From the NCBI GenBank assembly GCA_025450725.1, contig JANWLQ010000087.1, positions 14 to 24,013 of the forward strand: a stretch of DNA of 24,000 nucleotides, in the 5' to 3' direction. Made by a program: the position numbers and the translations under genes. Below, in pieces: positions 4,748 to 20,194 of the stretch (positions are counted from its first letter, which is position 1; the number at the start of each line of letters is the position of its first letter). The stretch comes from Terriglobales bacterium (lineage in GTDB: Bacteria > Acidobacteriota > Terriglobia > Terriglobales > SCQP01). The notes under the pieces were generated by a model, which saw nothing but the letters and a program-made list of their open reading frames with translations, was not told where the DNA came from and searched no databases.

Positions 4748-4820
4748 CGCCCATACATTCTAAGCCGGCGCTGCTCAATTTGTTGTGAATTCCCGCAGCT
4801 TCCTTGGTTTAATAGAGGCA

Positions 4821-6281
4821 ATGCTCTCGCGTGTTTTTCGGGTTCATTTCGTCGGCATAGGCGGCATCGGCATGAGCGGCATCGCGGAGGTTCTGCTGGT
4901 GCAGGGATGGCCGGTTTCCGGCTCCGACACGCGGCCCTCGCCGATCACCAGCCGGCTGATGGAGATGGGCGCGCGCATCGTGATCGGGCACGCGGCGGCG
5001 AATCTGTGTGACGCCGAGGTGGTGGTGACGTCGAGCGCGGTTGCGGCCGACAATCCCGAGGTCGTCGCCGCGCGGGAGCGGCAGATTCCGGTGATTCCGC
5101 GGGCGGAGATGCTGGCCGAGTTGATGCGGCTTAAATTCGGCATCGCGGTGGCGGGCATGCACGGCAAGACCACGACAACTTCGATGATTGCCACCGTGCT
5201 CGCCGGGGTTGGGCTTGACCCGACGGTGATCGTCGGGGGGCGGCTGGACAGCATTGGTTCGAATGCGAAGTTGGGCACCACGCAGTACCTGGTCGCGGAA
5301 GCGGATGAAAGCGACCGGTCGTTTCTTCAACTCTCGCCCATTGTTGCCGTCATCACCAATCTTGATCGCGAGCATCTTGATTGCTACAGCGGACTCGGCG
5401 ACATTCAGGACGCCTTCGTCGCCTTCGCCAACCGGGTGCCGTTTTACGGCACGGTTCTGGTCGGCGCGGAAGACGACGCCACACGGGCCATCCTGCCGCG
5501 GCTGCGGCGGCGGACGCTGGTGTATGGCACAAGCGACGATGCCGACCTGCACGTGGCGGCCACGGAGTTCGACGGGGGCGATTCGCGGTTTCGCCTGACC
5601 TGTTCGGCGGCCGGTTGTCATTTACTCGGGACGCGCGCGCGCGCCGATCTGGGGACGTTTATGGTGCCGCGCCCGGGGCTGCACAGCGTGCTGGACGCGA
5701 CGGCGGCAATCGCGGTGGGCCTGCTGCTCGGGGGCGAATTGGAAGCGGTGCGCGCGGCCATCGGCAACTTCCGGGGCGTGGACCGGCGCTTTCAGATCCG
5801 CGGCCGGGTGGGTGACGAGGCGAGCGGTATCACCGTGGTTGACGACTACGGGCATCACCCCACCGAGCTCGCCGCCACGCTGGCGGCGGCGCGCCAGTAT
5901 CAGGCCAAATCGAAGGGGCGAGTGCTCATGCTGTTCCAGCCGCATCGCTACACGCGAACGTTTCACCTCATGGAGGAGTTCGCCGCGACGCTGGCGCGGG
6001 CGGACCAGGCTTGGCTGCTCGACATTTACTCCGCCGGCGAGCCGCCGATCGAGGGCATTCACTCGAGCCGCCTTGCCCAACGGGCCAACGAACAGCACGG
6101 CGGGAACGTGGCCTATCTGCCTGACGCCGAAGCGGCTATCGCGGCGATTGCCGCCGCCGCGCGGCCCGGCGATCTGATTCTGACCCAGGGCGCGGGCAGC
6201 GTCTCCGGCCTTGGAGAGAAACTGCTGCAGGCGTTGACGGTCGGGCATGCGGCGAGCGCGCTGCAGACTTCCAGCCTATGA
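4821..6281 (+). CDS. murC: UDP-N-acetylmuramate--L-alanine ligase
   Basis: HFVGIGGIGMSGIAEVL, VAGMHGKTTTTSM (P-loop), DDYGHHPTE. ATG at 4821 preceded by AGAGG is preferred over the track's GTG at 4785. TGA overlaps the ftsQ ATG (ATGA, 6278-6281). Confidence 0.92.
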   Translation: MLSRVFRVHFVGIGGIGMSGIAEVLLVQGWPVSGSDTRPSPITSRLMEMGARIVIGHAAANLCDAEVVVTSSAVAADNPEVVAARERQIPVIPRAEMLAELMRLKFGIAVAGMHGKTTTTSMIATVLAGVGLDPTVIVGGRLDSIGSNAKLGTTQYLVAEADESDRSFLQLSPIVAVITNLDREHLDCYSGLGDIQDAFVAFANRVPFYGTVLVGAEDDATRAILPRLRRRTLVYGTSDDADLHVAATEFDGGDSRFRLTCSAAGCHLLGTRARADLGTFMVPRPGLHSVLDATAAIAVGLLLGGELEAVRAAIGNFRGVDRRFQIRGRVGDEASGITVVDDYGHHPTELAATLAAARQYQAKSKGRVLMLFQPHRYTRTFHLMEEFAATLARADQAWLLDIYSAGEPPIEGIHSSRLAQRANEQHGGNVAYLPDAEAAIAAIAAAARPGDLILTQGAGSVSGLGEKLLQALTVGHAASALQTSSL

Positions 6282-7261
6282 AACCGAAGCCGGACGCAGC
6301 ACTTCCCGATTCCTTGCACGAGCCGCCCCTGGACGAACCGCTCGAGGGGGAGGGCGAACTCGCCGACGATCCGGGGTACCGTCGCCGCGCCACGCCGGTG
6401 CGGGTGCGGCAGAAGCGCAGCGGCAACGTCGTCAGCCAATGGAAACGCCTGCGCAAGCCGATTCTTCTGTCCAGCCTGGGGCTCGGAATCACCTTCGCGG
6501 GGTACGCGCTGCTGTTCCGCAGTACGTGGTTTGTGCTGGCGGGTTCGGACCAAATCTCGATCAGCGGCGCGGTCGAGACCGACCCGGCGCGCGTGTTGTC
6601 GGTGTTCGCCTCCGACTATGGGCGGAATGTGTTTTTCATTCCCCTTGCCGAGCGCCGCGATTCGCTGGCGGCCATTCCCTGGGTGCAAACGGCGGCGGTC
6701 ATGCGCATCTGGCCGGCCCGCATCGTGGTGCGGTTGCGCGAGCGCACGCCGGTGGCGCAGGTCAGGGTGGGCGACCATCTGCAACTGGTGGACGGGGCAG
6801 GAAGCATTCTTGATCCGCCGGCGGCGAGCGCGGCCAACCAGCATTTTGATTTTCCGGTGATCACCGGCCTGGCTGACACAGCGGCGCATCGCGCCCCGCA
6901 AATGCGGTTGTATCAGGCGTTCATGACCGCGGTCGCCGGGCACGCCGCCGACATTTCCGAGATTGATCTCAGCGACGCCAGCAACGTCAAGGCCCGGGTC
7001 AGCCTTCCGGGGCACCCGAGCCAGACGGTGCTGCTGCAACTTGGCGATCGGAATTTCGAACAGCGCTACGGACTGTTCCTCTCGCAAGCGCAGACCTGGC
7101 TGGACAAATACCCAACCCTCGCCGGCGTGGACCTGCGCTACGACGGCGAAGCCATTGTGGACCCGGGCGTTCCGGTGGCCACTCCGTTGCCCAAGCCGGT
7201 GGCAAAGCCGTTGACCAAGCCGGCGACTAAGCCGGCTACTGGACCGAAGGTCAGACACTAG
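6278..7261 (+). CDS. ftsQ: cell division protein FtsQ (POTRA domain), with a long charged N-terminal tail and a KP-repeat C-terminal tail
   Basis: One TM helix (ILLSSLGLGITFAGYALLF). POTRA-like ISISGAVETDPARVLSVF...NVFFIPLAERRDSLAAIPWVQTAAVMRIWPARIVVRLRERTPVA. Located between murC and ftsA. Confidence 0.8.
   Translation: MKPKPDAALPDSLHEPPLDEPLEGEGELADDPGYRRRATPVRVRQKRSGNVVSQWKRLRKPILLSSLGLGITFAGYALLFRSTWFVLAGSDQISISGAVETDPARVLSVFASDYGRNVFFIPLAERRDSLAAIPWVQTAAVMRIWPARIVVRLRERTPVAQVRVGDHLQLVDGAGSILDPPAASAANQHFDFPVITGLADTAAHRAPQMRLYQAFMTAVAGHAADISEIDLSDASNVKARVSLPGHPSQTVLLQLGDRNFEQRYGLFLSQAQTWLDKYPTLAGVDLRYDGEAIVDPGVPVATPLPKPVAKPLTKPATKPATGPKVRH
7193..7240 (+). repeat. 12-bp in-frame tandem repeat x4 (AAGCCG at 7193, 7205, 7217, 7229) encoding KPVA-KPLT-KPAT-KPAT at the FtsQ C-terminus
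   Basis: AAGCCG recurs with an exact 12-bp period, read directly from the sequence. Confidence 0.8.
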
Positions 7262-7264
7262 GCC

Positions 7265-8455
7265 ATGCATTTCGCCACTCTCGATCTCGGCACCGCGCAC
7301 ACCACGCTTCTGCAAGTGCAATTGGAGAACGGCGTGATGCAGTACCGCGGGCACGTCACCGTTCCCAGCCAGGGGATGAAGAAGGGAAACGTGGTCGCGC
7401 CGCAGGCGGCGGCGGCGGTGATGCAGTCGGCGGCGGCGGAGCTGGAGCGGCAGACGGGTGTCGCCATCGAGCGCGTCTTCCTTTCGCTCACGGGGGCGCA
7501 GGTCAAGGGCATCGGCAGCCAAGCCGGCATTTCGCTCACTTCGCGCAGCCGCGAAGTGACGCGCGAGGACGCGCGACGGGTGCTCGATCTGGCCCGCTCG
7601 ATTTCGCTTCCCGATGACCGGCAGATACTGCACGTCATCCCGCAGGAGTTCGTGCTCGACCGGCAGTCGGGCATTCTCGAGCCGGTGGGCATGCTGGCTT
7701 CCCGGCTCGAAGCGCGGATCTACGCTGTCACCGTCGCCGCCGGGTTGAAGGACAACCTGGTGCTCGCCGCCAATCACGCCGGTCTCGAAGTGCACGAGCT
7801 GATCTTCGCGCCGCTGGCGCTGGCGGAAGCGTCGCTCAGCGCCGAGGAACGCCACGCCGGCGTGGCCGTGGTGGATCTGGGCGCGGGCACGACCGGCATT
7901 GCCGTGTATTCGAACGGCAGCCTGGCGCATGCGTCGGTGATACCGGTGGGGGGCGATCACATGACCAACGACATCGCGATCAAGCTCTCGACGACGCTGC
8001 CCGAGGCGGAGCGCATTAAGTGCGACTTCGGCGCGGCCACGCTCGCCTACGCCGGCGACAACCCGTCGGTCGAGGTGCCCGCGCCCGCCGACCGGCCGCC
8101 CCGGTTGGTACCGCACCGGCTGCTGTGCGAGTGCATCGAGTTTCGCGCCCAGGAATTGATCCGGCTGATTCAGGCGGAACTCTCGCGGGGCGGGCCGCTG
8201 GGGGCGGGAGTGTACATTAGCGGCGGGGCGAGCCGGCTGCAGGGATTCGTGGACCTGCTGCAAGCCAGCATCGGGATCGTGACGCGTCCGCTGGCGGCGA
8301 TTCTGATCGAAGGCATGCCGGACATCTTCGCCGAACCCGAGTACGCCTTCTCGGTCGGCGCCTGCTACTACGCCCACCGCCTGCTGGCGCGACAGCCGGT
8401 GGAGGCGACGATTTGGGAGAAACTGCGTTCTAAATGGGCCGCGCTGGGCAACTAG
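7265..8455 (+). CDS. ftsA: cell division protein FtsA (actin-like ATPase)
   Basis: LDLGTAHTTLL (phosphate 1), VVDLGAGTTGIAVY (phosphate 2), IPVGGDHMTNDIA, ISGGASRL. C-terminal amphipathic WEKLRSKWAALGN. Confidence 0.9.
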   Translation: MHFATLDLGTAHTTLLQVQLENGVMQYRGHVTVPSQGMKKGNVVAPQAAAAVMQSAAAELERQTGVAIERVFLSLTGAQVKGIGSQAGISLTSRSREVTREDARRVLDLARSISLPDDRQILHVIPQEFVLDRQSGILEPVGMLASRLEARIYAVTVAAGLKDNLVLAANHAGLEVHELIFAPLALAEASLSAEERHAGVAVVDLGAGTTGIAVYSNGSLAHASVIPVGGDHMTNDIAIKLSTTLPEAERIKCDFGAATLAYAGDNPSVEVPAPADRPPRLVPHRLLCECIEFRAQELIRLIQAELSRGGPLGAGVYISGGASRLQGFVDLLQASIGIVTRPLAAILIEGMPDIFAEPEYAFSVGACYYAHRLLARQPVEATIWEKLRSKWAALGN

Positions 8456-8457
8456 AG

Positions 8458-8480
8458 GGCGCAGTTCAGCGCCGGATTTT
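8458..8480 (+). terminator. weak intrinsic-terminator candidate after ftsA
   Basis: GGCGC(8458-8462) agttca GCGCC(8469-8473), then GGATTTT (T-run 8477-8480). Short stem and short T-run. Confidence 0.25.
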
Positions 8481-8520
8481 GACCGTTCGGTGCCGATAAC
8501 GGCCATTCACAGCAAGTGCT

Positions 8521-8549
8521 TTGCCAGCCAGGGTGCGGACAACTAGCAT
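8521..8549 (+). promoter_or_regulatory. sigma70-like promoter candidate for the radical SAM gene
   Basis: TTGCCA (8521-8526), 17-nt spacer, TAGCAT (8544-8549), in a locally low-GC stretch. Leaves about 45 nt of leader before ATG 8602. Confidence 0.3.
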
Positions 8550-8601
8550 CAAACCTAGGAAGTTGCAGAACTGCGACACGGCATATCCATCAGGCATATC
8601 C

Positions 8602-10347
8602 ATGGGCACACAAACCTTCGCTCCCGAAACTTTCGCACCCGCCAAGCGTGGTGACTTCACCGTACTTCAACCGGAAACCACCCACTCGGGCTCGCGCATC
8701 GAGGCCATACATAAAGGACTGCCGAAGATCACGCAGTCGCTCTGCCCCGATTGCACGCGCGTAATTGAAGCGCGCGAGTTCGAGGAGAACGGGGCCGTCT
8801 TCATGGAGAAGACCTGCCCGACGCACGGCTACTTCCGCGACAAGATCTATGCCGACGTGAAGCTCTATTTAAAGATGGAGCAGTGGTACTTCGGGGACAA
8901 CCGCGGGTTGTCGAACCCCGCGATTCCGAGCGCGACGCGCTGCCCCGACCAGTGTGGACTGTGCTCGATGCACACCAGCCACACCGGCCTGGCCAACGTG
9001 GACTTGACCAACCGCTGCAATCTGACCTGCCCGGTCTGCTTCGCCAACGCCAACGCGGCCGGCTACCTGTACGAGCCGAGCTTCGACCAGGTGCGCAAGA
9101 TGCTACAGGCGCTGCGCAACGAGCGCCCGGTGGCGGGACGCGTGGTGCAGTTCTCCGGCGGCGAGCCGACCATCTACCCGCGCTTCCATGACGCGGTGGC
9201 GCTGGCCAAGGAAATGGGTTTCAGCCACATCCAGGTCGCGACCAATGGCGTGATGTGGAACGACCTCGAGTTCTGCGAGAAGGCCCGCGACGCGGGTCTG
9301 CACACGCTGTACCTGCAGTTCGACGGCGTCTGCGACGACATCTACAAGCGCACCCGCGGCGAGTCGCTGTTCGACAAGAAGCTGAAGGCGATCGAGAACG
9401 TGCGCAAGGCCGGGATCATGAAGATCGTCTTCGTGCCCACCATCGTCAAGGGCCTCAACGATCACCAGATCGGCGACATCATCAAGCTGGCGCTCGATAA
9501 CATTGACGTGGTCAGCGGCATCAGCTTCCAGCCGGTGACGTTCACCGGACGCATTTCCCGCAAGGAGCTGGAGGCCAAGCGCTTCACGCTGGCCGACGTG
9601 GCGCACGCGGTTCACGAGCAGACGGGCCTGGCCGATCCGTACAACGATTGGTTCCCGCTCGCTTGCGTGACGCCCTTCTCGAAGCTGATCAGCGCGCTGC
9701 GCGGCGAAGAGACGACCTCGCTGAGCTGCCATCCGCACTGCTCGATGGGCACCTACATGTTCGTGGATCAGAAGACCAAGCAGGCGATTCCGGTGACCCG
9801 CTTCGTGGACGTCGGCAACATGCTGCAGGACATTGACAACCTGGCGCGGAGCGCGGAGAAGGCGCGGTTCAAGTTCTTCAGCAAGGTGAAGACCTGGAAC
9901 TCGCTGCAGAAGCATTTCCACGCCGAGCGCGCGCCCGAGGGCTTGACGTTCACGCGCTTCCTGCAGACACTGCAGGGCATGACCGACAAGAGCTACGGCC
10001 GCGGGTCGGACGCCGAGAGCGGCTTCGTTTACAAGACCCTGATGGTCGCGGGGATGCACTTCATGGATAGCTACAACTACGACGTGGAGCGGGTGAAGCG
10101 CTGCATTATTCACTACGCGGCGCCGAACGGGTTGATCTATCCGTTCTGCACCTACAACTCGGGCCCGGTGTACCGCGAGAAGATCGAGAAGAAGTACTCG
10201 ATGCCGTTCGACAAGCAGTTGACGACGATGCAGATTCCGAATGGCGGGCAGACGACGCAGGTCGCCGGCGATGCCGCGAAGAACGCACCGGCGGGGCTGC
10301 CTATTCTTAATGCCGCCCCCCAGAAGACGGGCTGCTGCTCTAACTAA
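8602..10347 (+). CDS. multi-cluster radical SAM enzyme, tetraether lipid synthase (Tes/GDGT-MAS)-like
   Basis: CPDC...CPTH zinc-ribbon/rubredoxin-like motif (from 8743). CPDQCGLC (8941-8964). Canonical radical SAM CNLTCPVC (9016-9039). FSGGEPT. Downstream Cys pairs (CHPHC, CIIHY...FC). ATG 8602 is preferred because the track's 8521 TTG start lies on the predicted promoter. Confidence 0.85.
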   Translation: MGTQTFAPETFAPAKRGDFTVLQPETTHSGSRIEAIHKGLPKITQSLCPDCTRVIEAREFEENGAVFMEKTCPTHGYFRDKIYADVKLYLKMEQWYFGDNRGLSNPAIPSATRCPDQCGLCSMHTSHTGLANVDLTNRCNLTCPVCFANANAAGYLYEPSFDQVRKMLQALRNERPVAGRVVQFSGGEPTIYPRFHDAVALAKEMGFSHIQVATNGVMWNDLEFCEKARDAGLHTLYLQFDGVCDDIYKRTRGESLFDKKLKAIENVRKAGIMKIVFVPTIVKGLNDHQIGDIIKLALDNIDVVSGISFQPVTFTGRISRKELEAKRFTLADVAHAVHEQTGLADPYNDWFPLACVTPFSKLISALRGEETTSLSCHPHCSMGTYMFVDQKTKQAIPVTRFVDVGNMLQDIDNLARSAEKARFKFFSKVKTWNSLQKHFHAERAPEGLTFTRFLQTLQGMTDKSYGRGSDAESGFVYKTLMVAGMHFMDSYNYDVERVKRCIIHYAAPNGLIYPFCTYNSGPVYREKIEKKYSMPFDKQLTTMQIPNGGQTTQVAGDAAKNAPAGLPILNAAPQKTGCCSN

Positions 10348-12680
10348 CGCTGGTACTTTAGCTTTGGAACGGCGTGCGGCGCGATGTGGCCGTGCGCCGT
10401 TTCTTTTTGCTCGAAGGCGTAGGCCATTCCCACCAGTTCGGCATCGCTCCAAGCCCGGCCCATGAGTTGAATGTCCACCGGATTGCCGCGGGCGTCGGCG
10501 CCGGCGGGAAAGGCAATGGTGGGCACGCCGTTGGCTGCGCTGGGCGTGTCGCGACGGCCGAAACTGGCGCGGTCGCCGCCGCCGTCGTTCACGCTGATCT
10601 CGCTGAGCAGTCCCGGGTAGACGATGGCGTCGACCCCGGCGGCATCCATCCATGCCTTGACCGCCGCTTGCCGCTGCCGCCGGAAGGCGCGTTTGGCTTC
10701 GATCTCGGCGGGGGTCATGCGCGGCGCGGGCGGTTGTTGGCAGGCGCTGGCCGGCTCGCGGACGTAGGCGATTTTCTTTTGGGAACAGGCCACGTCAACG
10801 GCGGTGTGTATGGCAAAGCCTTGGAGCGCTAGCTCCGGGTGCTGGTCAATGTACTGCATCCAGCCCTCGGAGACAACGTCGCCGGATGAGGTATCGCGGG
10901 TCCGCGGCAGCGCGGCCGCGGACATGTCCACAATAGTGGCGCCAGCGGCAGTCAGGTATTGGAGCGCCGCTTTTTCGGTGGCGAGCACACCGCCAGGCTC
11001 GTCGCTGGTGCCAAACGGATCAACCCAGGCGGCGGTTATGTAGCCAATGCGTTTTCCGTTGAGCGCATTGGGAGAAAGAACGGTGCGCCAGTCCTTGGGA
11101 ATATGCGCGTCGGCGTCGGCGGTCGCCGGGTCGGCGGGGTCGGTTCCGGCGACGGCGGTGAGCATCGCGGCCAGGTCGGGCACGGAGCGCGCCAGCACGC
11201 CGCCGCAATCGGTCATCCACACCAGCGGCATGATGCCCGCGCCGCTTTCGAGACCGTCGGTGCCGCGCAACGTGACCAGGCTGGCGGCGCTGGCCGGGCC
11301 ATAGAGCGAGTCGCCGGTCTGGGTGCCGAGGGCGGCAGCGGCGAAGCTCGCGGCAACGGCCACCGCGGAACCGCCACTCGACCCCAGGGCCGAGCGCGAA
11401 GGGTCATAGGCGTTCCAGACCTGGCCCCAGGCGTCGTTGGAGTAGAACCCGCTGGTCGCATACTCTTCCATCGCAGCTTTGCCCAGGATGACCGCTCCGG
11501 CGGCGCGCAAACGCGCGACCTGGGTGGCGTCGCGGGTTGGACGAAAGCCGGCGAAGGTCAAGCTGCCGTTGGTGGTGGCCATGTCGCGCGTGTCGTAGAG
11601 GTTCTTGACCGCGATGGGGACGCCAAGCAGCGCGGCATGGCTGCCCGCCTTGCGCGCGGCATCGGCGGCGCGGGCCTGCGCCAGCGCGTCGGCGGCGACA
11701 ATCTCGAAGGAGTGCAATCCAAACTGGCCGCGGTCATAGGCGGCGATGCGATCGAGGTAGGCTTGCACGATGGCGACCGACGTGGTCTTGCCGGATTCCA
11801 TGTCGCGCTGCAGCTCGGCGATTGACTTCTCGACCACGTCGTAACGCGAGCTCGTAGTCGCGGGCGGGACCGGCGGGGGCGGCGGCCGCGGCACGAGCAC
11901 GGCCGAATGATCGGGGCAAGGCAGTTGAAAATTGGCGATGGAACATTGCTCAGCCACGCTCAACCCGGCCACGTCGGGAGCGGCTTGCAATCTCCGGCCG
12001 GTCTCGGCCACCTCCGCCGGCTCGGCCACGATTACGAAGTGGAGCAGCGAGCGACTTTGACCGGGCGGCACGACGAGGTGATTGACGAAGGCGGGAAAAT
12101 CGCTTTCGTAGCCGCTGGTCGCGAGCGGCGTGTGAAAGGGATCGTCAAGCCAGTCGCCGCGAAAATCGAAGCTGCCGGCGATTGTCGCCTGCTGGTCTGG
12201 CATGGCGGCTGCGCCCGGTCTGCCGGCCGGACTACTGGTTTGACCGCCAAAGGCGGCGGCAAGGTTGATGGGCGCGCGGGTGGTGTTGGTAAACGTGTCG
12301 AGCCAGCGCCCGTAATTCGATTCGCGGCGAATCACGATTGAGCGGGTAATCGCGACGCCGCCGAGCATTACGGCAGCCGTGCTGGCGAAGCTATCGGTGC
12401 CATCGAAGCGAAGGCCGAAGCCGCGCATAACCAAGCCGTTATGAGGGTCGGCATTCTTCGTCACACTCACGCGTAATCCGGCGTAACCGTTGAGCCCTGT
12501 AGTGTAGGCGCCCTTCTGGCCCGCATCGCTTTGGGTGGCGCGAATGCTGCCGGTATCAACACCTGGCGGCGATGCATCCTGAATGCCCCAGTAACCCGCC
12601 TTGGCGTGGACGTAGTTGAACCCGGCCAGCATTAGCGCCGCAATCACGCCGACGCCGAGTATAGGGCGGCGCAGGCTCAC
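10344..12680 (-). CDS. secreted amidase-signature (AS) family amidase with an uncharacterised about 250-aa N-terminal domain and a Pro-rich linker
   Basis: Sec-type signal peptide MSLRRPILGVGVIAALMLAGFNYVHA|KA. Linker PRPPPPPVPP. AS core with PIAVKNLYD and GSSGGSAVAVA (about 11367-11384). GTG start overlaps the upstream permease stop (GTGA, 12677-12680). Confidence 0.85.
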   Translation of the reverse strand: MSLRRPILGVGVIAALMLAGFNYVHAKAGYWGIQDASPPGVDTGSIRATQSDAGQKGAYTTGLNGYAGLRVSVTKNADPHNGLVMRGFGLRFDGTDSFASTAAVMLGGVAITRSIVIRRESNYGRWLDTFTNTTRAPINLAAAFGGQTSSPAGRPGAAAMPDQQATIAGSFDFRGDWLDDPFHTPLATSGYESDFPAFVNHLVVPPGQSRSLLHFVIVAEPAEVAETGRRLQAAPDVAGLSVAEQCSIANFQLPCPDHSAVLVPRPPPPPVPPATTSSRYDVVEKSIAELQRDMESGKTTSVAIVQAYLDRIAAYDRGQFGLHSFEIVAADALAQARAADAARKAGSHAALLGVPIAVKNLYDTRDMATTNGSLTFAGFRPTRDATQVARLRAAGAVILGKAAMEEYATSGFYSNDAWGQVWNAYDPSRSALGSSGGSAVAVAASFAAAALGTQTGDSLYGPASAASLVTLRGTDGLESGAGIMPLVWMTDCGGVLARSVPDLAAMLTAVAGTDPADPATADADAHIPKDWRTVLSPNALNGKRIGYITAAWVDPFGTSDEPGGVLATEKAALQYLTAAGATIVDMSAAALPRTRDTSSGDVVSEGWMQYIDQHPELALQGFAIHTAVDVACSQKKIAYVREPASACQQPPAPRMTPAEIEAKRAFRRQRQAAVKAWMDAAGVDAIVYPGLLSEISVNDGGGDRASFGRRDTPSAANGVPTIAFPAGADARGNPVDIQLMGRAWSDAELVGMAYAFEQKETAHGHIAPHAVPKLKYQR

Positions 12681-15088
12681 TCGGCGCGTAACGCGACGCG
12701 GGGGTCGGCGTGGGTGGCGCGCTGGGCCGGGGCGAGGGCGGCGAGCAGCGCGACGAACAGGACGGTCGCGGCCACGACGGCGAGGACGCCGAAATTCACG
12801 GGCTGCACTTCAAAGAGCATGCTGGCCAGTAGACTACCACCGGCGGCGGCGGCGGCCAAGCCGATTGCCAATCCGATGAACACTGGCTTGAGACCCTGGC
12901 GCAAGATTAACCCGCGCAACTGGCCGGGCTCGGCGCCGAGGGCAAGGCGAATGCCGAGCTCGGGCAGGCGCTGCGTGACCGCCTGCGCAACCAGCGCATA
13001 GAGACCGAGCGCGGCGAGAATAAGCGCCAGCACGCCGAAGCAGATCAGCAGCGTCAATTGGAACCAGCGCGGGGCGACGAGTGCGGCTTGGAGATTCGAC
13101 AGGGGCAGGACCGCGCTCAGGGGCGCGATTGGCTCGATGCGATGAATGACGCCGGCGAGCGCGCGGCTTAAATCATCCGGCGTGCGGTTGGATCGCACCA
13201 CGAGCGTAAAGCGGGTCATGGGATACGAGCCGGCGGTTTCATAGATCACCGGCGGCGGTTGCCGATCGAGCGCGGTGCGCGCGTCGGCCGCAACGCCGAC
13301 TACGGTCACCGTTCCTGAATTCACTTTGAGCGGGTGGCCAACGACTTGCATAGGTTCGTGCTCCAACTCCGGCCACAATGTGCGCAGCGCGGTTTCTGAG
13401 ACCACGATGTTACGATCGGGCGGATCGCTCCAACTTAGATCACGCCCAGCGAGCAGGGGCATTCTCATGGTGTCGAAATATCCGGGAGCGACAAAGCGCA
13501 CATTCACCTCGGGCTGTTGATTGTTCGCATAAGCCTTGCCGGGAACACTGGCGCCATCGACCCACGTCTCGCCCTGCAAGGGCAAGTGGGTGGTGAGGGT
13601 GGCGGCGCTTACGCCGGGCAGGGTGGCGGCGGTGGTCGCGACTTGTTGCAAGTGTTGGAGGCGCAATTGCGGTGTGGCGGCGCCCAGGTGCAGCACGGTG
13701 CTAGCGGTGCGCTCGGAGCTGAAACCGACCGGCACTTGCAGCAAGCGATACAGGCTCATGCCGAGCAGGCCGACGGTGGCGAGGAGCACGGCGCACAACC
13801 CGACCTCAACGGCGATCACAGCGCTGCGCGCGCGGAGAGAAGCGCGATCGCTGGCGCGGCTCGCCTTCAAGTGCGCCTGGGGATCGCTGCGCCAGAGCCA
13901 CAGGGCCGGAACCAGGCCACAGCCAAGGCCGGCGAGGACGGCGATGGCCAGTGAAAACGAGAAAACCATCACGTCGAGATGTATATCGTTGACGCGGGGC
14001 AAGTCGGCGGGCGCAGCCGCCAAGAGGCCGCGCAAACCGGCGGCCGCGGCGAGCAGGCCAAGGCCGCCGCCGACCAGCCCGAGCAGCAGGTTCTCCATGA
14101 GCAAGGTGCCGGCCAGGCGTTGGCGGCTGGCGCCCAGGGCGAGGCGAATCGCCCATTCGCGGCGGCGATCGGCGGCTTTGGTCACGCTCAATCCGCCCAG
14201 ATTCACGCAGACAATTAACAGCAACGCGCCGACGCCGGCGAGCAGCATCCAGAGGCCGCGCTCGGCCGGGGCGACGATTTCGTTGGGCAGCTGATCCACG
14301 ATGGCGGTGAGGTGGGCGGTGCTATGAGCGCTTCGCGCCAGATTGGCTTCGATGACATTCATCTCCGCCTTGGCGGAGGCGATCGAGACACCGGGGGCGA
14401 GGCGCGCGATCACCATATAGTTAAAATCGGAAAACGGATCGCTAATTCGTTCATCGGCGCCAAACCCGAGCGGGTAAAAGAATTGAGGCGAGCGGGTCGG
14501 GTACATCGGGCCAAGCTCGGGTCCTTCCAAGTGAAAGTCGGGCGGCAGTACGCCGACGACGGTGCCGTGCACTCCAACAGCGCCGATCGACTGCCCTATG
14601 ACAGCAGGGTTCGCGCCGAACGCCTTGCGCCAGAGGGCATCGGTGATGATGACGGGGGGAAGGGTGGATTTTTCCTCGCCTGCGACAAAGGTCCGTCCCA
14701 GTTGGGGGCGGGTTTCGAGAATCGAAAAAAGGTTGGGCGTCACATGAGCGCCATCGATCAATTGGGGCTGGCCCGCAGTGACCAGGGTCATGCTCGACGG
14801 CTGGCTGGCGGCGATGCCGGTGAAGGAGTGCAACTGCTGCCAGGCAATGAACTCGGCCGGATTAACGAACCAGCGGAAGAGGGGATCGCTGGGCGGATGG
14901 TCGGGCAGGTCCTGCCCCAATCGGACCAAACCGCCAGGATCGCGGAGCGCCAGGGGCTGCAAGAGTACGCCATTCACGGCGGCGAAAATGACGGTGGTCG
15001 CGCCCACGCCCAAGGCCAGGGTGAAGACCGCGGCCAGGGTATAGCGGCGTTGGCGCAGCAGGTTGCGGGTGAGTTGCCAGAAGCCCAT
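12677..15088 (-). CDS. ADOP-family duplicated FtsX/MacB-type ABC permease (no ATPase gene adjacent)
   Basis: 803 aa. Two FtsX modules, each preceded by a large extracytoplasmic domain. Motifs REWAIRLALGA and LPELGIRLALGA. C-terminal DPRVALRAE. Confidence 0.9.
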   Translation of the reverse strand: MGFWQLTRNLLRQRRYTLAAVFTLALGVGATTVIFAAVNGVLLQPLALRDPGGLVRLGQDLPDHPPSDPLFRWFVNPAEFIAWQQLHSFTGIAASQPSSMTLVTAGQPQLIDGAHVTPNLFSILETRPQLGRTFVAGEEKSTLPPVIITDALWRKAFGANPAVIGQSIGAVGVHGTVVGVLPPDFHLEGPELGPMYPTRSPQFFYPLGFGADERISDPFSDFNYMVIARLAPGVSIASAKAEMNVIEANLARSAHSTAHLTAIVDQLPNEIVAPAERGLWMLLAGVGALLLIVCVNLGGLSVTKAADRRREWAIRLALGASRQRLAGTLLMENLLLGLVGGGLGLLAAAAGLRGLLAAAPADLPRVNDIHLDVMVFSFSLAIAVLAGLGCGLVPALWLWRSDPQAHLKASRASDRASLRARSAVIAVEVGLCAVLLATVGLLGMSLYRLLQVPVGFSSERTASTVLHLGAATPQLRLQHLQQVATTAATLPGVSAATLTTHLPLQGETWVDGASVPGKAYANNQQPEVNVRFVAPGYFDTMRMPLLAGRDLSWSDPPDRNIVVSETALRTLWPELEHEPMQVVGHPLKVNSGTVTVVGVAADARTALDRQPPPVIYETAGSYPMTRFTLVVRSNRTPDDLSRALAGVIHRIEPIAPLSAVLPLSNLQAALVAPRWFQLTLLICFGVLALILAALGLYALVAQAVTQRLPELGIRLALGAEPGQLRGLILRQGLKPVFIGLAIGLAAAAAGGSLLASMLFEVQPVNFGVLAVVAATVLFVALLAALAPAQRATHADPRVALRAE

Positions 15089-15205: not shown

Positions 15206-16513
15206 GTGTCCATTTCCCGCCCCCAATCCGCGACGTCGACGACGCCTGTCAAAGGGTCCGCTAAGCCCCGGGGCCGGCGCGGCCCTGCGTCCATCTGGAA
15301 GTACCGCCTGCTGCCTTTTTTGCTGGTTTTGGGGCCGGGCTTTATCACCGCCAATGTAGATAATGACCCGGGCGGAATTCTGACCTACTCCCAGGCGGGG
15401 GCCAAGTTTGGTTATCTGCTGCTGTGGACGCTGATCCCGACCACGATCGCGCTGATTGTGGTGCAGGAGATGGCGGCGCGGATGGGCGCGGTGACGGGCA
15501 AAGGCCTGTCGGACTTGATTCGGGAGGAGTTTGGTTTCCGGGCGACTTTTTTCGCGATGACCGTGCTCGGCATCGCCGACTACGGCAACATCGTGAGCGA
15601 GTTCAGCGGTTTGGCGCTCGGGATGGGACTGTTCAATATCTCCAAGTACATCGCCGTGCCGGTCGGCGCACTGCTCATATGGCTGCTGGTAGTGAGGGGA
15701 CGGTATCGGAAGGTCGAGCTGATTTTGATCGGGCTGTCGCTGATTTATTTTACATATGCCTTTTCGGCGGTGCTGGCCCATCCCGACTGGATGCTGGCGC
15801 TGAAGGAGACGCTGGTGCCGACCGGGGTCGAGTTTCACGGCGACTACCTGGTGATGGTGATCGGGCTGATCGGCACCACCATCACGCCGTGGATGCAGTT
15901 CTATTTGCAGGCCTCGATTGTGGAAAAAGGCATTGGCAAGAAGGAATACGCACTGAGCCGGTGGGACGTAATTCTGGGGTGCATCATCACCGACGTAGTG
16001 GCGTTCTTCATCGTTGTCGCCTGCAGCGCAACCCTTTACATGCACGGCCACCGCGACGTGACCAACGTGGCCGAAGTGGCGCAGGCACTGGGACCGCTGG
16101 CGGGACGATTCGCGGAACTGCTCTTCGCCATTGGGTTGATCAATGCCGCGCTGCTGTCGGCGGCAATCTTGCCGCTGGCGACGGCGTACAACGTTTGCGA
16201 AGGCCTGGGGTTTGAAAGCGGCGTGGACAAGCGCTTCTCGGAGGCGCCGGCATTCTACGCGCTCTACACGTTTCTGATCGCGGCCGGCGCCGGATTCGTG
16301 CTGATCCCGCGGCTGCCGCTGTTGAAGGTGATCATTTACTCGCAGGTGGCGAACGGCATTCTGCTGCCGTTCGTGCTGGTGTTTATGCTGCTGCTGGTGA
16401 ACCGGGAAGATGTGATGGGCGAGTACCGCAATTCGCTGCTCGGGAACATCATCGCCTGGGGCACGAGCGTGGCCATCGTGGCGCTGACCGTGCTCTGGAT
16501 TTTCACGCTGTAG
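15206..16513 (+). CDS. NRAMP/SLC11-family cation transporter with a non-canonical metal-site (NRMT-like)
   Basis: 435 aa, about 11 TM segments. GPGFITANVDNDPGGILTYSQAGAKFGYLLLW aligns with NRAMP TM1 and GLIGTTITPWMQFYLQ with TM6. GTG start. Confidence 0.88.
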   Translation: MSISRPQSATSTTPVKGSAKPRGRRGPASIWKYRLLPFLLVLGPGFITANVDNDPGGILTYSQAGAKFGYLLLWTLIPTTIALIVVQEMAARMGAVTGKGLSDLIREEFGFRATFFAMTVLGIADYGNIVSEFSGLALGMGLFNISKYIAVPVGALLIWLLVVRGRYRKVELILIGLSLIYFTYAFSAVLAHPDWMLALKETLVPTGVEFHGDYLVMVIGLIGTTITPWMQFYLQASIVEKGIGKKEYALSRWDVILGCIITDVVAFFIVVACSATLYMHGHRDVTNVAEVAQALGPLAGRFAELLFAIGLINAALLSAAILPLATAYNVCEGLGFESGVDKRFSEAPAFYALYTFLIAAGAGFVLIPRLPLLKVIIYSQVANGILLPFVLVFMLLLVNREDVMGEYRNSLLGNIIAWGTSVAIVALTVLWIFTL

Positions 16514-16526
16514 CTTCGGCATTCCT

Positions 16527-19196
16527 CTACTCGTGACGCAGAGCGACGACTGGATCAGCCCCTAGAGCCTGGCGCGCGGCGCTGAAACCGGCGGCCAAGG
16601 CCACCGCCAACAGCAGCAGTGGCACGGTTGTATCAACAATGCCGTCCCATGGACTCACGCCGTAAAGTATGTTCGCGAGGCTGACAGCGCCAGCGGTGGC
16701 GGCGATGATTCCGATGGCCGCACCTGTCGCCGCCCCGGTTAAGACGGGAACCATCGTCTGGCGGAGCAACATACGCATCAGGCCGGCTCGATCGGCGCCG
16801 AGCGCCATGCGAACGCCGAGTTCGTGACGGCGCGCGGCCACCCTGGCCGTGACCATGCCGAAAATGCCGAGCGTGGCCAACAGCAGCGCCAATCCACCGA
16901 GAGCCGCCGACAGCACCGCAGCCACGCGGGTAGGGGCGCGCCAGCCCTCGAGGTTGGACTCCAAGGGACTAACGGTCGCAGCAAGGTTTGGGTCCAACTG
17001 ATGCAACGTGCCGAGGAGAGCGGCCGTCTGGGCATTGCCCGACCAGCGCACCAGCCATTGCACGTCGCGCATCTGCGCCGCGCTTGCGGGCCAGAATACA
17101 TACGGGGCATCCGACACTCCCAAGGAAGAGAGCTGGGCATCGGCAGTAACGCCAATGACGGTCCAGGCGGTTTTGCCGCGGTACAATATGGCGCCGACGG
17201 CGGGCACGCCAGGCCACAGGCGCCGCGCCGCCGCCTGATTGACGATCACGACTTTGGCATCGGCGGCAACCTCGGCGGGAGTGAAGCTTCTTCCGCGCCG
17301 CAGCGCGACGCCGAGCAGGGAAAAATAATCGCCGGAGACGAAGCTGTAATCCAGCTGCAATCTCCGATCGCCGGCACGCGCGCTGACGCCGGTGACCGAG
17401 CGCGAACCACCCAATGGAATGATCGAAGTTTGAGCGGCGCCGCTCACGCCGGCGAGGGTGCGCAGACGTTCGCCAATGCGCCTTTGCAGTAACGCTGCCC
17501 GAACCTGATCATAGCCCGCGGCGGGCAGGTCGAGCGTCACGGCGCTGACCTGGCGAGTGGCAAATCCGGGGTTGACTTCACGGGCGCGGATGAATACGCG
17601 CAGCAATAGCCCGGTTACAAGGAGCAACACCATACAGCCTGCCACTTGTGTGCCCACCAGAATGCCGCGGAGCCGGCCGCCGGAGGGAGGCTGATCAAGC
17701 GATTCCTTCACGGCTAGGTTCAGCTTCGCTCCGGCAACGCGCAACGCCGGAGCCAAGCCGACGAGGCCAACGGTGAGGAGCGACAGCCCGAGAACAAAGA
17801 GCCAAACGCGACTATCGGCGGCAGCGGGGAGGGACAGGTTCAGATCATCGGCACCAACATGCCTGACCACCAAACGCAGCAGCGGCATCGCGGTGACCGC
17901 CGCCACCCAGCCGCCGATCGCGCCTCCAATCGCGGCCAACAGGAAATTCTCGGCCAGGAGTTGGCGAACAATTCTGGCGCGGGTCGCTCCCAGGGCCAGA
18001 CGCATCGCCACCTCCCGCTGCCGGGCCAAACCGCGAGCCAGAAGCAGCGCGGCGAGATTGGCGCACGCCAGAAGCAAGATCATCCCCGTCGCGGCCAGCA
18101 TGACGCCGGCGATTACGTTCAGCGGGGTGCGCATTGATGCCATGGATGCGCGGGTTGCGGGCTCGATCCGCACTGAGGTCAAGCGCCCCGCCTGGCGCGA
18201 GTTCAAACGGGCGGCGATGGTTGCCATGTCGGCCGCCGCCTGGCGCGCAGTGACGCCGGGGCGGAGGCGACCGAGCATGCCCAGCCAACTAAGGTTGTCA
18301 TCGGGAATCCAGTCATGGCCGGCATCGGCGGCCGATTGTTCCTCAATAGGCGCCCAGAACTGGGATGCCACCGCGAGCGTGCCGCCGAATTTCTCCGGCG
18401 CCACGCCCACGACCTCGAACTGAGTATGGTTGAGCGTGAGTTGCCGGCCCAACACCGCGCCGCCGCCCAGTTGGCGCTGCCAAAACTCGTGGCTAATTAC
18501 AAGCACTGGCGCTGGATGGGAACAGTCGGCGGCACTTAGGCCGCGCCCGATGGCGATGGCGACGCCCAGCACAGTGAAGTAGTTGCAACTCACCAACGTG
18601 CCGGAGATCGGGCGCGGCGTTGCTGTCATCCACTCCGCGCTGACCATTGGTTCGTAAGCGGCGAGGCCGCTGAATACGTGGTTCTGGCCTGCGTAGAGCT
18701 GATACTCGGACAGCGAGACAAACGCGGCGTCGTCACGCACGTCGCGGGCGACATCATTACCGTGACTGTTGCGCAGGATCTGGCTCACCGCCATGACCTG
18801 GCTGGGCTGCGCGACCGGCAGCGGACTCAGCACAGCCGCGTCGAACAGCGTGAAGATGGCGGTGTTCATGCCGATGCCCAGCGCCAGCGTGGCGACCGCC
18901 ACCAGCGTGAAAACAGGGGAACGGCGCAAGCCGCGGAAGCCAAAGCGAACATCCTGAACGAACTCATGAAAGTAACGGGCGGTACTCATGTCGTGGCACT
19001 CCTGCGCAATTTGTTCGAAGCCGCCGAAATCTATGCTGGCGGCGCGCCGCGCCTCGTCCTGAGGCATTCCGGCGGCGCGATGCAGCGCCACTTGGCGCTC
19101 CCAATGCTGCCGCAACTCATCCGCCAATTCCCGTTCCCGCCGCCTGCGTCCGAGGAGGGCGGTGAGGAAACTCCAGATCCGCAACGCTAATCGCAC
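16527..19196 (-). CDS. ADOP-family duplicated FtsX/MacB-type permease with N-terminal permease-prefix extension
   Basis: 889 aa. N-terminal RRRERELADELRQHWERQ...GMPQDEARRAA..FGGFEQIAQECHD..FVQDVRFGFRGLRRSPVFT is typical of ADOP proteins that follow a PadR gene. Motifs REVAMRLALGA and RHELGVRMALGA. Ends DPVVALRHE. GTG start overlaps the padR 3' end by 10 bp. Confidence 0.9.
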   Translation of the reverse strand: MRLALRIWSFLTALLGRRRRERELADELRQHWERQVALHRAAGMPQDEARRAASIDFGGFEQIAQECHDMSTARYFHEFVQDVRFGFRGLRRSPVFTLVAVATLALGIGMNTAIFTLFDAAVLSPLPVAQPSQVMAVSQILRNSHGNDVARDVRDDAAFVSLSEYQLYAGQNHVFSGLAAYEPMVSAEWMTATPRPISGTLVSCNYFTVLGVAIAIGRGLSAADCSHPAPVLVISHEFWQRQLGGGAVLGRQLTLNHTQFEVVGVAPEKFGGTLAVASQFWAPIEEQSAADAGHDWIPDDNLSWLGMLGRLRPGVTARQAAADMATIAARLNSRQAGRLTSVRIEPATRASMASMRTPLNVIAGVMLAATGMILLLACANLAALLLARGLARQREVAMRLALGATRARIVRQLLAENFLLAAIGGAIGGWVAAVTAMPLLRLVVRHVGADDLNLSLPAAADSRVWLFVLGLSLLTVGLVGLAPALRVAGAKLNLAVKESLDQPPSGGRLRGILVGTQVAGCMVLLLVTGLLLRVFIRAREVNPGFATRQVSAVTLDLPAAGYDQVRAALLQRRIGERLRTLAGVSGAAQTSIIPLGGSRSVTGVSARAGDRRLQLDYSFVSGDYFSLLGVALRRGRSFTPAEVAADAKVVIVNQAAARRLWPGVPAVGAILYRGKTAWTVIGVTADAQLSSLGVSDAPYVFWPASAAQMRDVQWLVRWSGNAQTAALLGTLHQLDPNLAATVSPLESNLEGWRAPTRVAAVLSAALGGLALLLATLGIFGMVTARVAARRHELGVRMALGADRAGLMRMLLRQTMVPVLTGAATGAAIGIIAATAGAVSLANILYGVSPWDGIVDTTVPLLLLAVALAAGFSAARQALGADPVVALRHE

Positions 19197-19519
19197 CGCA
19201 GCACCAATCCGATGGCGGAGGAGAGGCGTTCCCAGTGGTCGCGTTCGCGTTCCAGGTAGGCGCGCCCAGGACGGGTAAGGGAGTAGAATTTGGCGCGGCG
19301 GTTATTTTCCGAATCGCCCCAAGCCGCGCGCACCCAACCCTGCGCCTCGAGCCGCTGCAGGGCGGGATAGAGGGCGCCCTGGCGAACTTGCAGCACTTCG
19401 CGGGAAACTAGATGGATGCGCTGCGCGATTCCCCAGCCATGCATTGGCTCGAGCGCCAAAATTCGCAAGATCAGCAGGTCCAGCGTTCCTTGTACAAGTT
19501 CTGTGGGTTTGCCCATCAT
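19187..19519 (-). CDS. PadR-family transcriptional regulator
   Basis: 110 aa. GTLDLLILRILALEPMHGWGIAQRI...GALYPALQRLEAQGWV...RRAKFYSLTRPG is the winged-helix PadR signature. Confidence 0.92.
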   Translation of the reverse strand: MMGKPTELVQGTLDLLILRILALEPMHGWGIAQRIHLVSREVLQVRQGALYPALQRLEAQGWVRAAWGDSENNRRAKFYSLTRPGRAYLERERDHWERLSSAIGLVLRCD

Positions 19520-19870: not shown

Positions 19871-20194
19871 TTATTCATGGCGGAGCGCTACGAGCGGGTC
19901 GTCGTTGGCGGCGCGGCGGGCGGGCAAATAGCTGGCTAATGCTGCCGCGGCTAGCAGCAGCAAGGGGGCGAGGACGAAAACAATGGGGTCGACGCTCACG
20001 TCAACCACCATGGACGACAACAGGCCGGAAAGCATGAGGGCCATTACGACGGTTGCAATGGCGCCGGCGGCGCCGACCCAGATTGCATGGCCGACAATAT
20101 CGCCCACGAGCCTTCGGCGCGTTGCACCCAGCGCCATGTGGATGCCGATCTCGCGGCACCCTCGGGCGACGGCAAGGTCGCGCAGAAGGTGCAT
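19871..20194 (-). pseudogene. remnant of an ADOP/FtsX-family permease, C-terminal about 100 aa only
   Basis: CREIGIHMALGA...ASYLPARRAANDDPLVALRHE aligns with the last FtsX module of both intact ADOP genes (RHELGVRMALGA...DPVVALRHE). No upstream permease sequence exists, because the divergent gene starts 57 bp away. Confidence 0.6.

Follow-up and report, generated by a model that had tools for sequence, protein, structure and literature searches.

In a 24-kb window of DNA (the whole stretch analysed here) from a metagenome-assembled genome (MAG) of an uncultured Terriglobales soil bacterium, we examined an open reading frame (ORF) on the forward strand, at positions 8602 to 10347 with the stop codon included. 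This ORF had been proposed from its sequence to encode an enzyme of the radical S-adenosylmethionine (SAM) type that makes membrane-spanning lipids in bacteria. We refer to it as tes, a predicted lipid C-C coupling enzyme of the Tes/GDGT-MAS family, on the basis of the NCBIfam profile NF045702, the crystal structure 7TOL, the agreement of a structural model with that structure, and dN/dS values. Judged by profile and by model, the tes protein is a full-length representative of the Tes/GDGT-MAS family of radical SAM enzymes. We consider it likely, from sequence, from modelling and from analogy with the archaeal enzyme, that it joins lipid tails to give membrane-spanning lipids of the iso-diabolic-acid or branched glycerol dialkyl glycerol tetraether (brGDGT) type. 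Few terrestrial palaeotemperature and pH proxies are in wider use than the brGDGTs; which enzyme couples their chains remains to be proven, with Tes homologues as the leading candidate for aerobic Acidobacteria.

Family assignment and cofactor sites of the tes protein

The resemblance to archaeal tetraether lipid synthase, which the original prediction had drawn from the order of motifs, was confirmed by homology searches, in which Tes/GDGT-MAS gave the best match. Against the NCBIfam equivalog NF045702 (tetraether lipid synthase Tes), the protein scored 590.4 bits with E 2.5e-177, in comparison to a cut-off of 450, and the match placed residues 44-535 on profile positions 2-485 of 486; the crystallised archaeal enzyme MJ0619 itself scored 744 bits. 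In a search of PDB sequences, the sole strong match was 7TOL/7TOM, the GDGT-MAS of Methanocaldococcus jannaschii (7TOL, E 3.8e-133, residues 39-539), and the identity of tes to MJ0619 was 40% across ~500 residues. Pfam indicated an HMPTM-type zinc ribbon at residues 41-83 (PF23545, E 3.5e-18) and a radical SAM domain at residues 135-297 (PF04055, E 3.4e-27). An AlphaFold2 model of tes, built on a 47-sequence alignment (21 bacterial and 26 archaeal sequences), had a predicted local distance difference test score (pLDDT) of 83.5 and a predicted template modelling score (pTM) of 0.86. When compared with 7TOL/7TOM by Foldseek, it gave E 2e-53, a template modelling (TM) score of 0.92 (target-normalised) and a root-mean-square deviation of 2.5 Å over ~510 columns. 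The next-best folds (SkfB, MoaA, HydE and viperin) reached TM scores of 0.3-0.5 and had the radical SAM barrel alone in common with the model.

These results leave next to no probability for the placement of tes in another radical SAM subfamily, whether among the SPASM/twitch peptide maturases, the MoaA-like enzymes or the TrsS selenoprotein system. MoaA, SkfB, PqqE and NirJ were indeed matched weakly in NCBIfam and PDB, and the TrsS model NF045646 reached 334 bits; however, the cut-off of the latter is 490, and the matches to MoaA, NirJ, SPASM and cofactor enzymes were limited to the radical SAM core (residues ~132-320) and lay far below their cut-offs, with 36-54 bits for the NCBIfam SPASM families against the required 265-650. 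No SPASM domain was found in tes by the Pfam search, and the TM scores given above also separate the protein from these enzymes. Hardly more credible is a role as a pterin methyltransferase (7,8-dihydro-6-hydroxymethylpterin dimethyltransferase), a label that JGI attaches to many homologues, that was the first annotation of MJ0619, and that is echoed in the Pfam name "HMPTM zinc ribbon". This annotation is an inherited one and has in effect already been refuted for MJ0619, as Lloyd et al. failed to reproduce the activity and found in the structure a narrow, hydrophobic tunnel for lipids (PMC9433317). The SPASM, MoaA, TrsS and pterin methylase assignments were thus rejected on the combined evidence of Pfam, the NCBIfam cut-offs, the TM scores and the published structural work.

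To examine the cofactor sites, we took the metal ligands of the GDGT-MAS crystal structure from PMC9433317 and mapped them onto the 47-sequence alignment. All 15 published ligands, which belong to the rubredoxin-like iron and to three [4Fe-4S] clusters, were invariant in the bacterial and the archaeal sequences alike, and so were the GGEPT motif and the equivalent of MJ0619 Tyr459 (tes Y505). The mononuclear Cys3His iron site is intact, as are all three [4Fe-4S] sites, and none of the auxiliary-cluster cysteines is missing, these being the features by which the original prediction could be compared with the crystal structure. Its list of motifs was also accurate with respect to places and spacings, both in the translation and in the alignment with MJ0619.

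The N-terminal rubredoxin-like Cys3His iron domain (residues 41-83, positions 8722..8850, on the forward strand like all the regions described here), assigned by PF23545 and by its invariant ligands, contains C48-P-D-C51, followed after 20 residues by C72-P-T-H75. These ligands, C48/C51/C72/H75, correspond to C9/C12/C33/H36 of MJ0619 with the exact CX2C-X20-CX2H spacing. The N-terminal auxiliary [4Fe-4S] motif, C114-x3-C118-x2-C121-x2-H124 (positions 8941..8973), is invariant in the 47 sequences and reads C114-PDQ-C118-GL-C121 in its cysteine part; it corresponds to C73/C77/C80 and a His of MJ0619, the ligands of [4Fe-4S]N. Seventeen residues further on, C139-NLT-C143-PV-C146 provides the CX3CX2C motif of the radical SAM core (residues 135-297, positions 9004..9492, PF04055), equivalent to C98/C102/C105 of MJ0619, with GGEPT at residues 186-190. 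The segment ISFQPVTFTGR occupies residues 307-317 and includes Q310 and R317.

The C-terminal auxiliary-cluster and lipid-pocket region (residues 376-516, positions 9727..10149) contains C376-HPH-C380, C501 and F515-C516, as well as Y505 and M485, the equivalent of Met439, which is the labile ligand of [4Fe-4S]C in MJ0619. As C380, C501 and C516 were the sole invariant cysteines of this region among the 47 sequences, they are the obvious candidates for the [4Fe-4S]C ligands, an assignment based on invariance and not read from coordinates. The CHPHC motif had been noted as a conserved pair, which was correct for C380, invariant and a putative ligand, but not for C376, which is not conserved.

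The archaeal Tes/GDGT-MAS enzymes (MJ0619, 7TOL/7TOM; MA_1486; Saci_0703) have the same four domains as tes, namely the rubredoxin-like iron domain, [4Fe-4S]N, the radical SAM core and [4Fe-4S]C, and MJ0619 and tes have in common the SAM-loop residues (Q268/R275, equivalent to tes Q310/R317), Met439, Tyr459 and all metal ligands. In comparison to the archaeal proteins, tes has an additional N-terminal extension of ~40 residues and a disordered tail of 38 residues with a Cys pair; it carries Gly at the position of MJ0619 Cys438, beside the Met ligand, and Val/Ile at that of Cys456. The host also differs: as a bacterium, it presumably builds its lipids from glycerol-3-phosphate carrying iso-branched acyl or alkyl chains. 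Only two columns of the alignment, N509/D and Y513/I, were specific to the bacterial versus the archaeal group, and they are too few and too confounded by shared ancestry for interpretation.

An acidobacterial paralogue, "Tes2" (~700 aa), was observed among the related loci that we compared (cited below by their L numbers), at L088:7490-9571 and L026:5718-7817. It has the Zn ribbon and radical SAM domains as in tes, and its radical SAM motif is conserved, as are the Met and the cysteines of [4Fe-4S]C. However, it is only 36% identical to tes and scores 312 bits, below the equivalog cut-off of 450; cysteines are missing from its [4Fe-4S]N site, its rubredoxin motif contains an insert, and its C-terminus is extended by a long segment. 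In some Bryobacterales (L044, L076), Tes2 is also found just 5ʹ of the canonical Tes.

Proposed reaction and alternative products

By analogy with the archaeal GDGT-MAS (PMC9433317; review PMC13459092), tes would act on membrane glycerolipids with iso-branched alkyl chains of the iso-C15 type and would join two such chains at their methyl ends. The CX3CX2C cluster would reductively cleave SAM, and the 5ʹ-deoxyadenosyl radical would take a hydrogen from the terminal sp3 carbon of one chain. The substrate radical would then be held on the C-terminal [4Fe-4S] cluster, for which Met485 would be the labile ligand, in the form of a C-S adduct until a second SAM activated the second chain for attack on the adduct, with formation of a Csp3-Csp3 bond. 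The rubredoxin-like iron and the N-terminal cluster would probably relay electrons. The expected products are iso-diabolic-acid diglycerol tetraesters, and also brGDGTs, provided that another part of the genome encodes an enzyme for ester-to-ether conversion.

Iso-branched chains are likely substrates because their isopropyl end is that of the phytanyl terminus, because the archaeal enzyme is indifferent to head groups, and because the expected products occur in cultured Acidobacteria that carry Tes. The identity of the iso-fatty acid and phytanyl ends was pointed out in a study in which the top bacterial Tes homologues were those of Koribacter and Solibacter (PMC8941075). GDGT-MAS was crystallised holding two E. 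coli phosphatidic acids in its pockets, with the head groups bound non-specifically (PMC9433317). S. usitatus, in which Tes homologues are present, makes brGDGTs and branched glycerol trialkyl glycerol tetraethers (brGTGTs) (PMC10087280). According to the passage of a 2026 paper that cites Chen et al. 2025, and thus at second hand, Ca. Koribacter versatilis, with Tes only, gives iso-diabolic diglycerol tetraesters, and S. usitatus, with Tes and Ger, gives brGDGTs.

Several points weigh against the proposed function. The activity of bacterial Tes "has not been experimentally confirmed" (PMC11868695, 2025), with neither an assay nor a deletion, so that the caution of the original prediction on this matter holds. 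Tes homologues are present in 3 of 14 iso-diabolic-acid-producing Acidobacteria (PMC13159169), and Tes is therefore not the general acidobacterial route. The host is known solely as an uncultured MAG, and no lipid-synthesis gene was consistently found beside tes in any lineage examined. Finally, the sequence cannot separate an intermolecular (membrane-spanning) from an intramolecular (macrocyclic) product.

The same chemistry could in principle lead to another product or act on another substrate, such as a macrocyclic diacyl or dialkyl glycerol, cross-linked lipid A acyl chains, hopanoid side chains or alkyl ethers, which we regard as rather unlikely. In GDGT-MAS a single active site does yield macrocyclic archaeol as well as GDGT (PMC9433317), and hydrolysis of a macrocycle would likewise yield iso-diabolic acid; tes is located beside envelope genes, namely the division and cell wall (dcw) cluster and lipopolysaccharide (LPS) heptose genes, and bacterial homologues occur in taxa without known biphytanyl or brGDGT lipids (PMC11868695, PMC9433317). 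However, the catalytic residues and the fold are kept with the archaeal enzyme, the cultured Acidobacteria with Tes contain tetraesters, brGTGTs and brGDGTs (partly on the second-hand account mentioned above), and nothing specific points to another substrate. Far less probable still is that this bacterial enzyme converts archaeol-like diethers into isoprenoid GDGTs of the archaeal type. Such a reading would agree with the score above the cut-off of an equivalog trained on archaeal Tes and with the retention of every residue conserved in the archaeal enzymes, but isoprenoid GDGTs are known from no bacterium (PMC8941075), the window is without archaeal lipid genes, and Acidobacteria of the same class make iso-branched lipids.

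The function that we favour for tes, the joining of lipid tails into membrane-spanning lipids, is also that of Mss from Thermotoga maritima and Thermoanaerobacter ethanolicus, a radical SAM enzyme whose products, diabolic or iso-diabolic acids, arise by the coupling of two fatty-acyl tails. Mss belongs to another radical SAM family: BLAST searches with Tes find nothing in the Mss organisms, neither protein retrieves the other by BLAST, and the Acidobacteria examined are without mss homologues (PMC13159169). Moreover, Mss was validated by expression in E. coli, whereas the assignment of bacterial Tes is drawn from sequence and analogy.

With respect to novelty the original prediction went too far: Zeng et al. 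2022 had already suggested that the Tes homologues of Acidobacteria synthesise brGDGTs, and it is the functional hypothesis of these authors and of Halamka et al. 2022 that is applied here to tes. What sets this locus apart is its place in the dcw cluster under a private promoter, an extreme constraint, a Mn/Fe transporter as frequent neighbour, and a C-terminal tail that is limited to bacterial homologues. The locus leaves the question of the enzyme unsettled and is no more testable than the genes of cultured Solibacter and Koribacter. What it adds is a candidate that is present, complete and unusually constrained in an abundant uncultured lineage of soil Terriglobales, together with experimental handles (the map of the ligands, the tail and the contrast of Tes1 with Tes2) and a link to the cell-division cluster.

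Coding signal, selection and distribution of tes

The ORF at 8602..10347 was confirmed as a real gene, its family match being far beyond chance. The open frame extends from 8521 to 10347 (+) and begins with TTG; within it, the ATG at 8602 opens the 581-aa protein, in agreement with the original prediction. In an alignment, the start codons of 12 related loci lined up with this ATG, and L002 and L006 have an in-frame stop just 4 codons 5ʹ of the position aligned to 8602. The longer alternative with the TTG start at 8521 was rejected on the basis of the homologue starts, the stops in L002 and L006 and the conserved -10 box downstream of 8521. The third-position GC content of tes is 0.87, the top value among the large ORFs of the window.

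We estimated dN/dS between the window and clade members by the Nei-Gojobori method. The values for Tes were 0.04-0.07 (dN 0.02-0.05, dS 0.36-0.9), those for MurC 0.20-0.30, for FtsA 0.25-0.37, for FtsQ 0.24-0.49 and for Nramp 0.09-0.19. The corresponding protein identities were 93-96% for Tes, 57-71% for FtsA, 42-53% for FtsQ and 68-75% for MurC. By these measures tes is functional and under very strong purifying selection, and not the result of a recent transfer, because dS is substantial and synteny is conserved; recent horizontal transfer was rejected as the explanation of the 93-96% identity on the same two grounds.

An identical protein is encoded in the assembly GCA_036553795.1, to which the window DNA is 99.8% identical, and tblastn revealed a near-identical copy (99.7%, two residues differ) in DATNFK010000021 of Terriglobales bacterium SMAG_U11293. 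Close homologues of tes number in the thousands and are mostly unnamed metagenomic proteins; the named sources are Terriglobales, Bryobacteraceae and Solibacter MAGs, and a few of the homologues are already called "tetraether lipid synthase Tes" by NCBI. Clustering at 50% gave 607 family representatives with E up to 1e-30. Even the copies from Bryobacterales, Solibacter MAGs and "Acidoferrales" are 70-78% identical to tes, and those of Bryobacterales and Solibacter MAGs score above the same equivalog cut-off. The Bryobacterales copies stand in unrelated contexts, whereas tes of the window follows ftsA within the dcw cluster, is preceded by a conserved promoter of its own and encodes a tail of the GCCS type. 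Ca. Koribacter versatilis is a cultured member of the Terriglobales. Like tes, its Tes homologue (strain Ellin345) and that of Ca. Solibacter usitatus Ellin6076 are part of the high-scoring group of bacterial Tes proteins and fall under the published hypothesis; the identities of 70-78% given above refer to MAG proteins. We also observed a 95%-identical Tes together with Nramp on a 3-kb contig (L005, DATNAI010000355.1) in a MAG labelled Castellaniella sp., a betaproteobacterium. This label is most likely a binning error and not evidence of a real betaproteobacterial Tes.

The unusual ...KTGCCSN end described in the original prediction is present, with the cysteines C578 and C579. It closes a tail of residues 544-581 (positions 10231..10344, +) that is predicted to be disordered (pLDDT < 50), ends in G-C578-C579-S-N and occurs in bacterial homologues only. 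Within the clade the tail is conserved as QTTQVAGDAAK..ALPVLQ..GGC(C/G)S. Cysteine was found in 44 of 109 bacterial Tes tails, with a Cys pair in 30 of the 109, and in none of 27 archaeal tails. Many bacterial tails finish in (E)P(E)LVxG; more generally the bacterial endings vary (GGCCSS, GGCGTC, KKGCGTC..EPELVG, VCCS), and the archaeal tails are short.

Genomic setting and transcription signals

The gene tes directly follows murC (4785-6281), ftsQ (6278-7261) and ftsA (7265-8455), which together cover positions 4785..8455 on the forward strand and were identified by Pfam, with no ftsZ after ftsA. The order murC-ftsQ-ftsA-tes-Nramp was found in at least nine related MAGs. In distant Acidobacteria, whose FtsA is 38-44% identical, the cluster murG-murC-ftsQ-ftsA-ftsZ is retained, and the original prediction was correct that tes sits where ftsZ would be expected, since the distant relatives have ftsA-ftsZ at this place. 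The identity of FtsA is at least 51% inside the clade and drops sharply to at most 46% outside. A search with E. coli FtsZ as query, which covered the window and the related loci, gave no match in the window or in the loci of the clade; as a positive control, the same query matched FtsZ at 54% identity in L089 and L090, the two distant loci that it covered. In most clade members tes comes directly after ftsA. L088 has the divergent Tes paralogue in the ftsA-x-Nramp slot, and one clade genome (L091, L016) has neither tes nor ftsZ after ftsA, its Tes being located elsewhere and adjoining an FTR1 iron permease.

The Mn/Fe transporter Nramp (15206..16513, +, Pfam E 1e-98) is adjacent to tes in L002, L004-L009, L011-L013, L017 and L018, and in L088 Tes2 stands beside Nramp. 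In the window and in L003, a block of ~4.8 kb with an amidase and MacB genes (10344-15088, -, in the window) sits between tes and Nramp. A metal-ion transporter thus recurs just 3ʹ of tes, as Nramp in the ftsA-tes clade and as FTR1 at L016:10033-11034.

The displacement of ftsZ from its slot, the presence there, in most members, of a Tes-family gene, be it Tes1 as in the window or the cluster-deficient Tes2 as in L088, the private promoter, the Mn/Fe transporter downstream and an evolution several-fold slower than that of FtsA and MurC might be read as a link to cell division. In such a reading, making membrane-spanning lipids would be essential and tied to envelope growth and division, and the Cys-pair tail would be a new redox, metal-binding or partner-docking appendage; we regard this as an unlikely proposal, of which a more far-reaching form would leave the lineage with no ftsZ at all.

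An own promoter-like element, claimed for tes in the original prediction, was supported by our analysis. It consists of TTGCCA (-35) and TAGCAT (-10, at 8544-8549) separated by a 17-nt spacer (8521..8549, +), with 9 of 12 matches to the sigma-70 consensus. The sequence CTAGCATC, which occurs once in the window, is invariant in all 12 aligned clade loci, with a TTG 17-18 nt 5ʹ of the box, while the flanking proteins of those loci are just 42-75% identical and the rest of the spacer has diverged. The alignment of the 12 loci also revealed two conserved boxes further upstream in the ftsA-tes spacer, GCAGTTCA (8461-8468) and GCCATTCA (8502-8509), spanning 8461..8509 on the forward strand. These GCCRTTC-type boxes lie ~41 nt apart and are kept in the clade loci while the surrounding spacer diverges, and they may be binding sites of a regulator.

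Nineteen nucleotides past the tes stop begins a terminator-like hairpin (10366..10410, +) with a 15-bp GC-rich stem followed by a U-run; it matched in a terminator scan, with a folding energy of -36.6 kcal/mol and z = -3.3. Because of its own conserved promoter and the terminator-like hairpin after its stop, tes looks like a monocistronic unit. A regulatory RNA in the 5ʹ region of tes was considered and rejected, as no Rfam family matched at threshold anywhere in the window. In the window and in L003 the 5ʹ leader is 40-60 nt shorter and the Shine-Dalgarno sequence is degenerate in comparison to the AGGAGG found elsewhere. A direct repeat, two copies of GGCATATCCAT with a 3-nt spacer (8580-8605), overlaps the tes start codon and occupies the place of the AGGAGG Shine-Dalgarno of the other clade loci.

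The amidase gene (10344-12680, -) is convergent with tes and overlaps its stop by 4 nt, so that its last ~20 codons cross the terminator-like hairpin. In L003 the amidase and tes are ~320 nt apart, and hence the 3ʹ end of the amidase differs in the window. Further downstream, the reverse strand encodes two MacB/FtsX permeases and PadR, with Nramp on the forward strand between the permeases, and a BNR/sortilin protein follows farther on, on the forward strand. Upstream of tes and on the opposite strand are genes for heptose and the LPS core: gmhB-like, hldE-like kinase and adenylyltransferase, and a GT9 heptosyltransferase.

The original prediction that no other lipid genes flank tes was essentially right. 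Domain annotation of the 24-kb window gave no ger, plsA, elbD, grs or archaeal lipid genes. The sole lipid-related domain of the window is in a fusion of a PEMT/ICMT-family methyltransferase with DUF3108 (549-1742, -), which lies beside the LPS-heptose genes, is represented by separate adjacent genes in L002 and is probably unrelated to tes. The idea of lipid genes adjoining tes in other lineages was also dismissed, as the contexts in Bryobacterales were mutually unrelated and showed no consistent lipid genes. The PadR-family regulator lies 5ʹ of the second MacB/FtsX permease and, with a nearby ORF, occupies 19187-19519 (-) and 19871-20194 (-). This ORF, of 107 aa, resembles the C-terminal end of an FtsX permease (...DPLVALRHE) and is probably a gene remnant.

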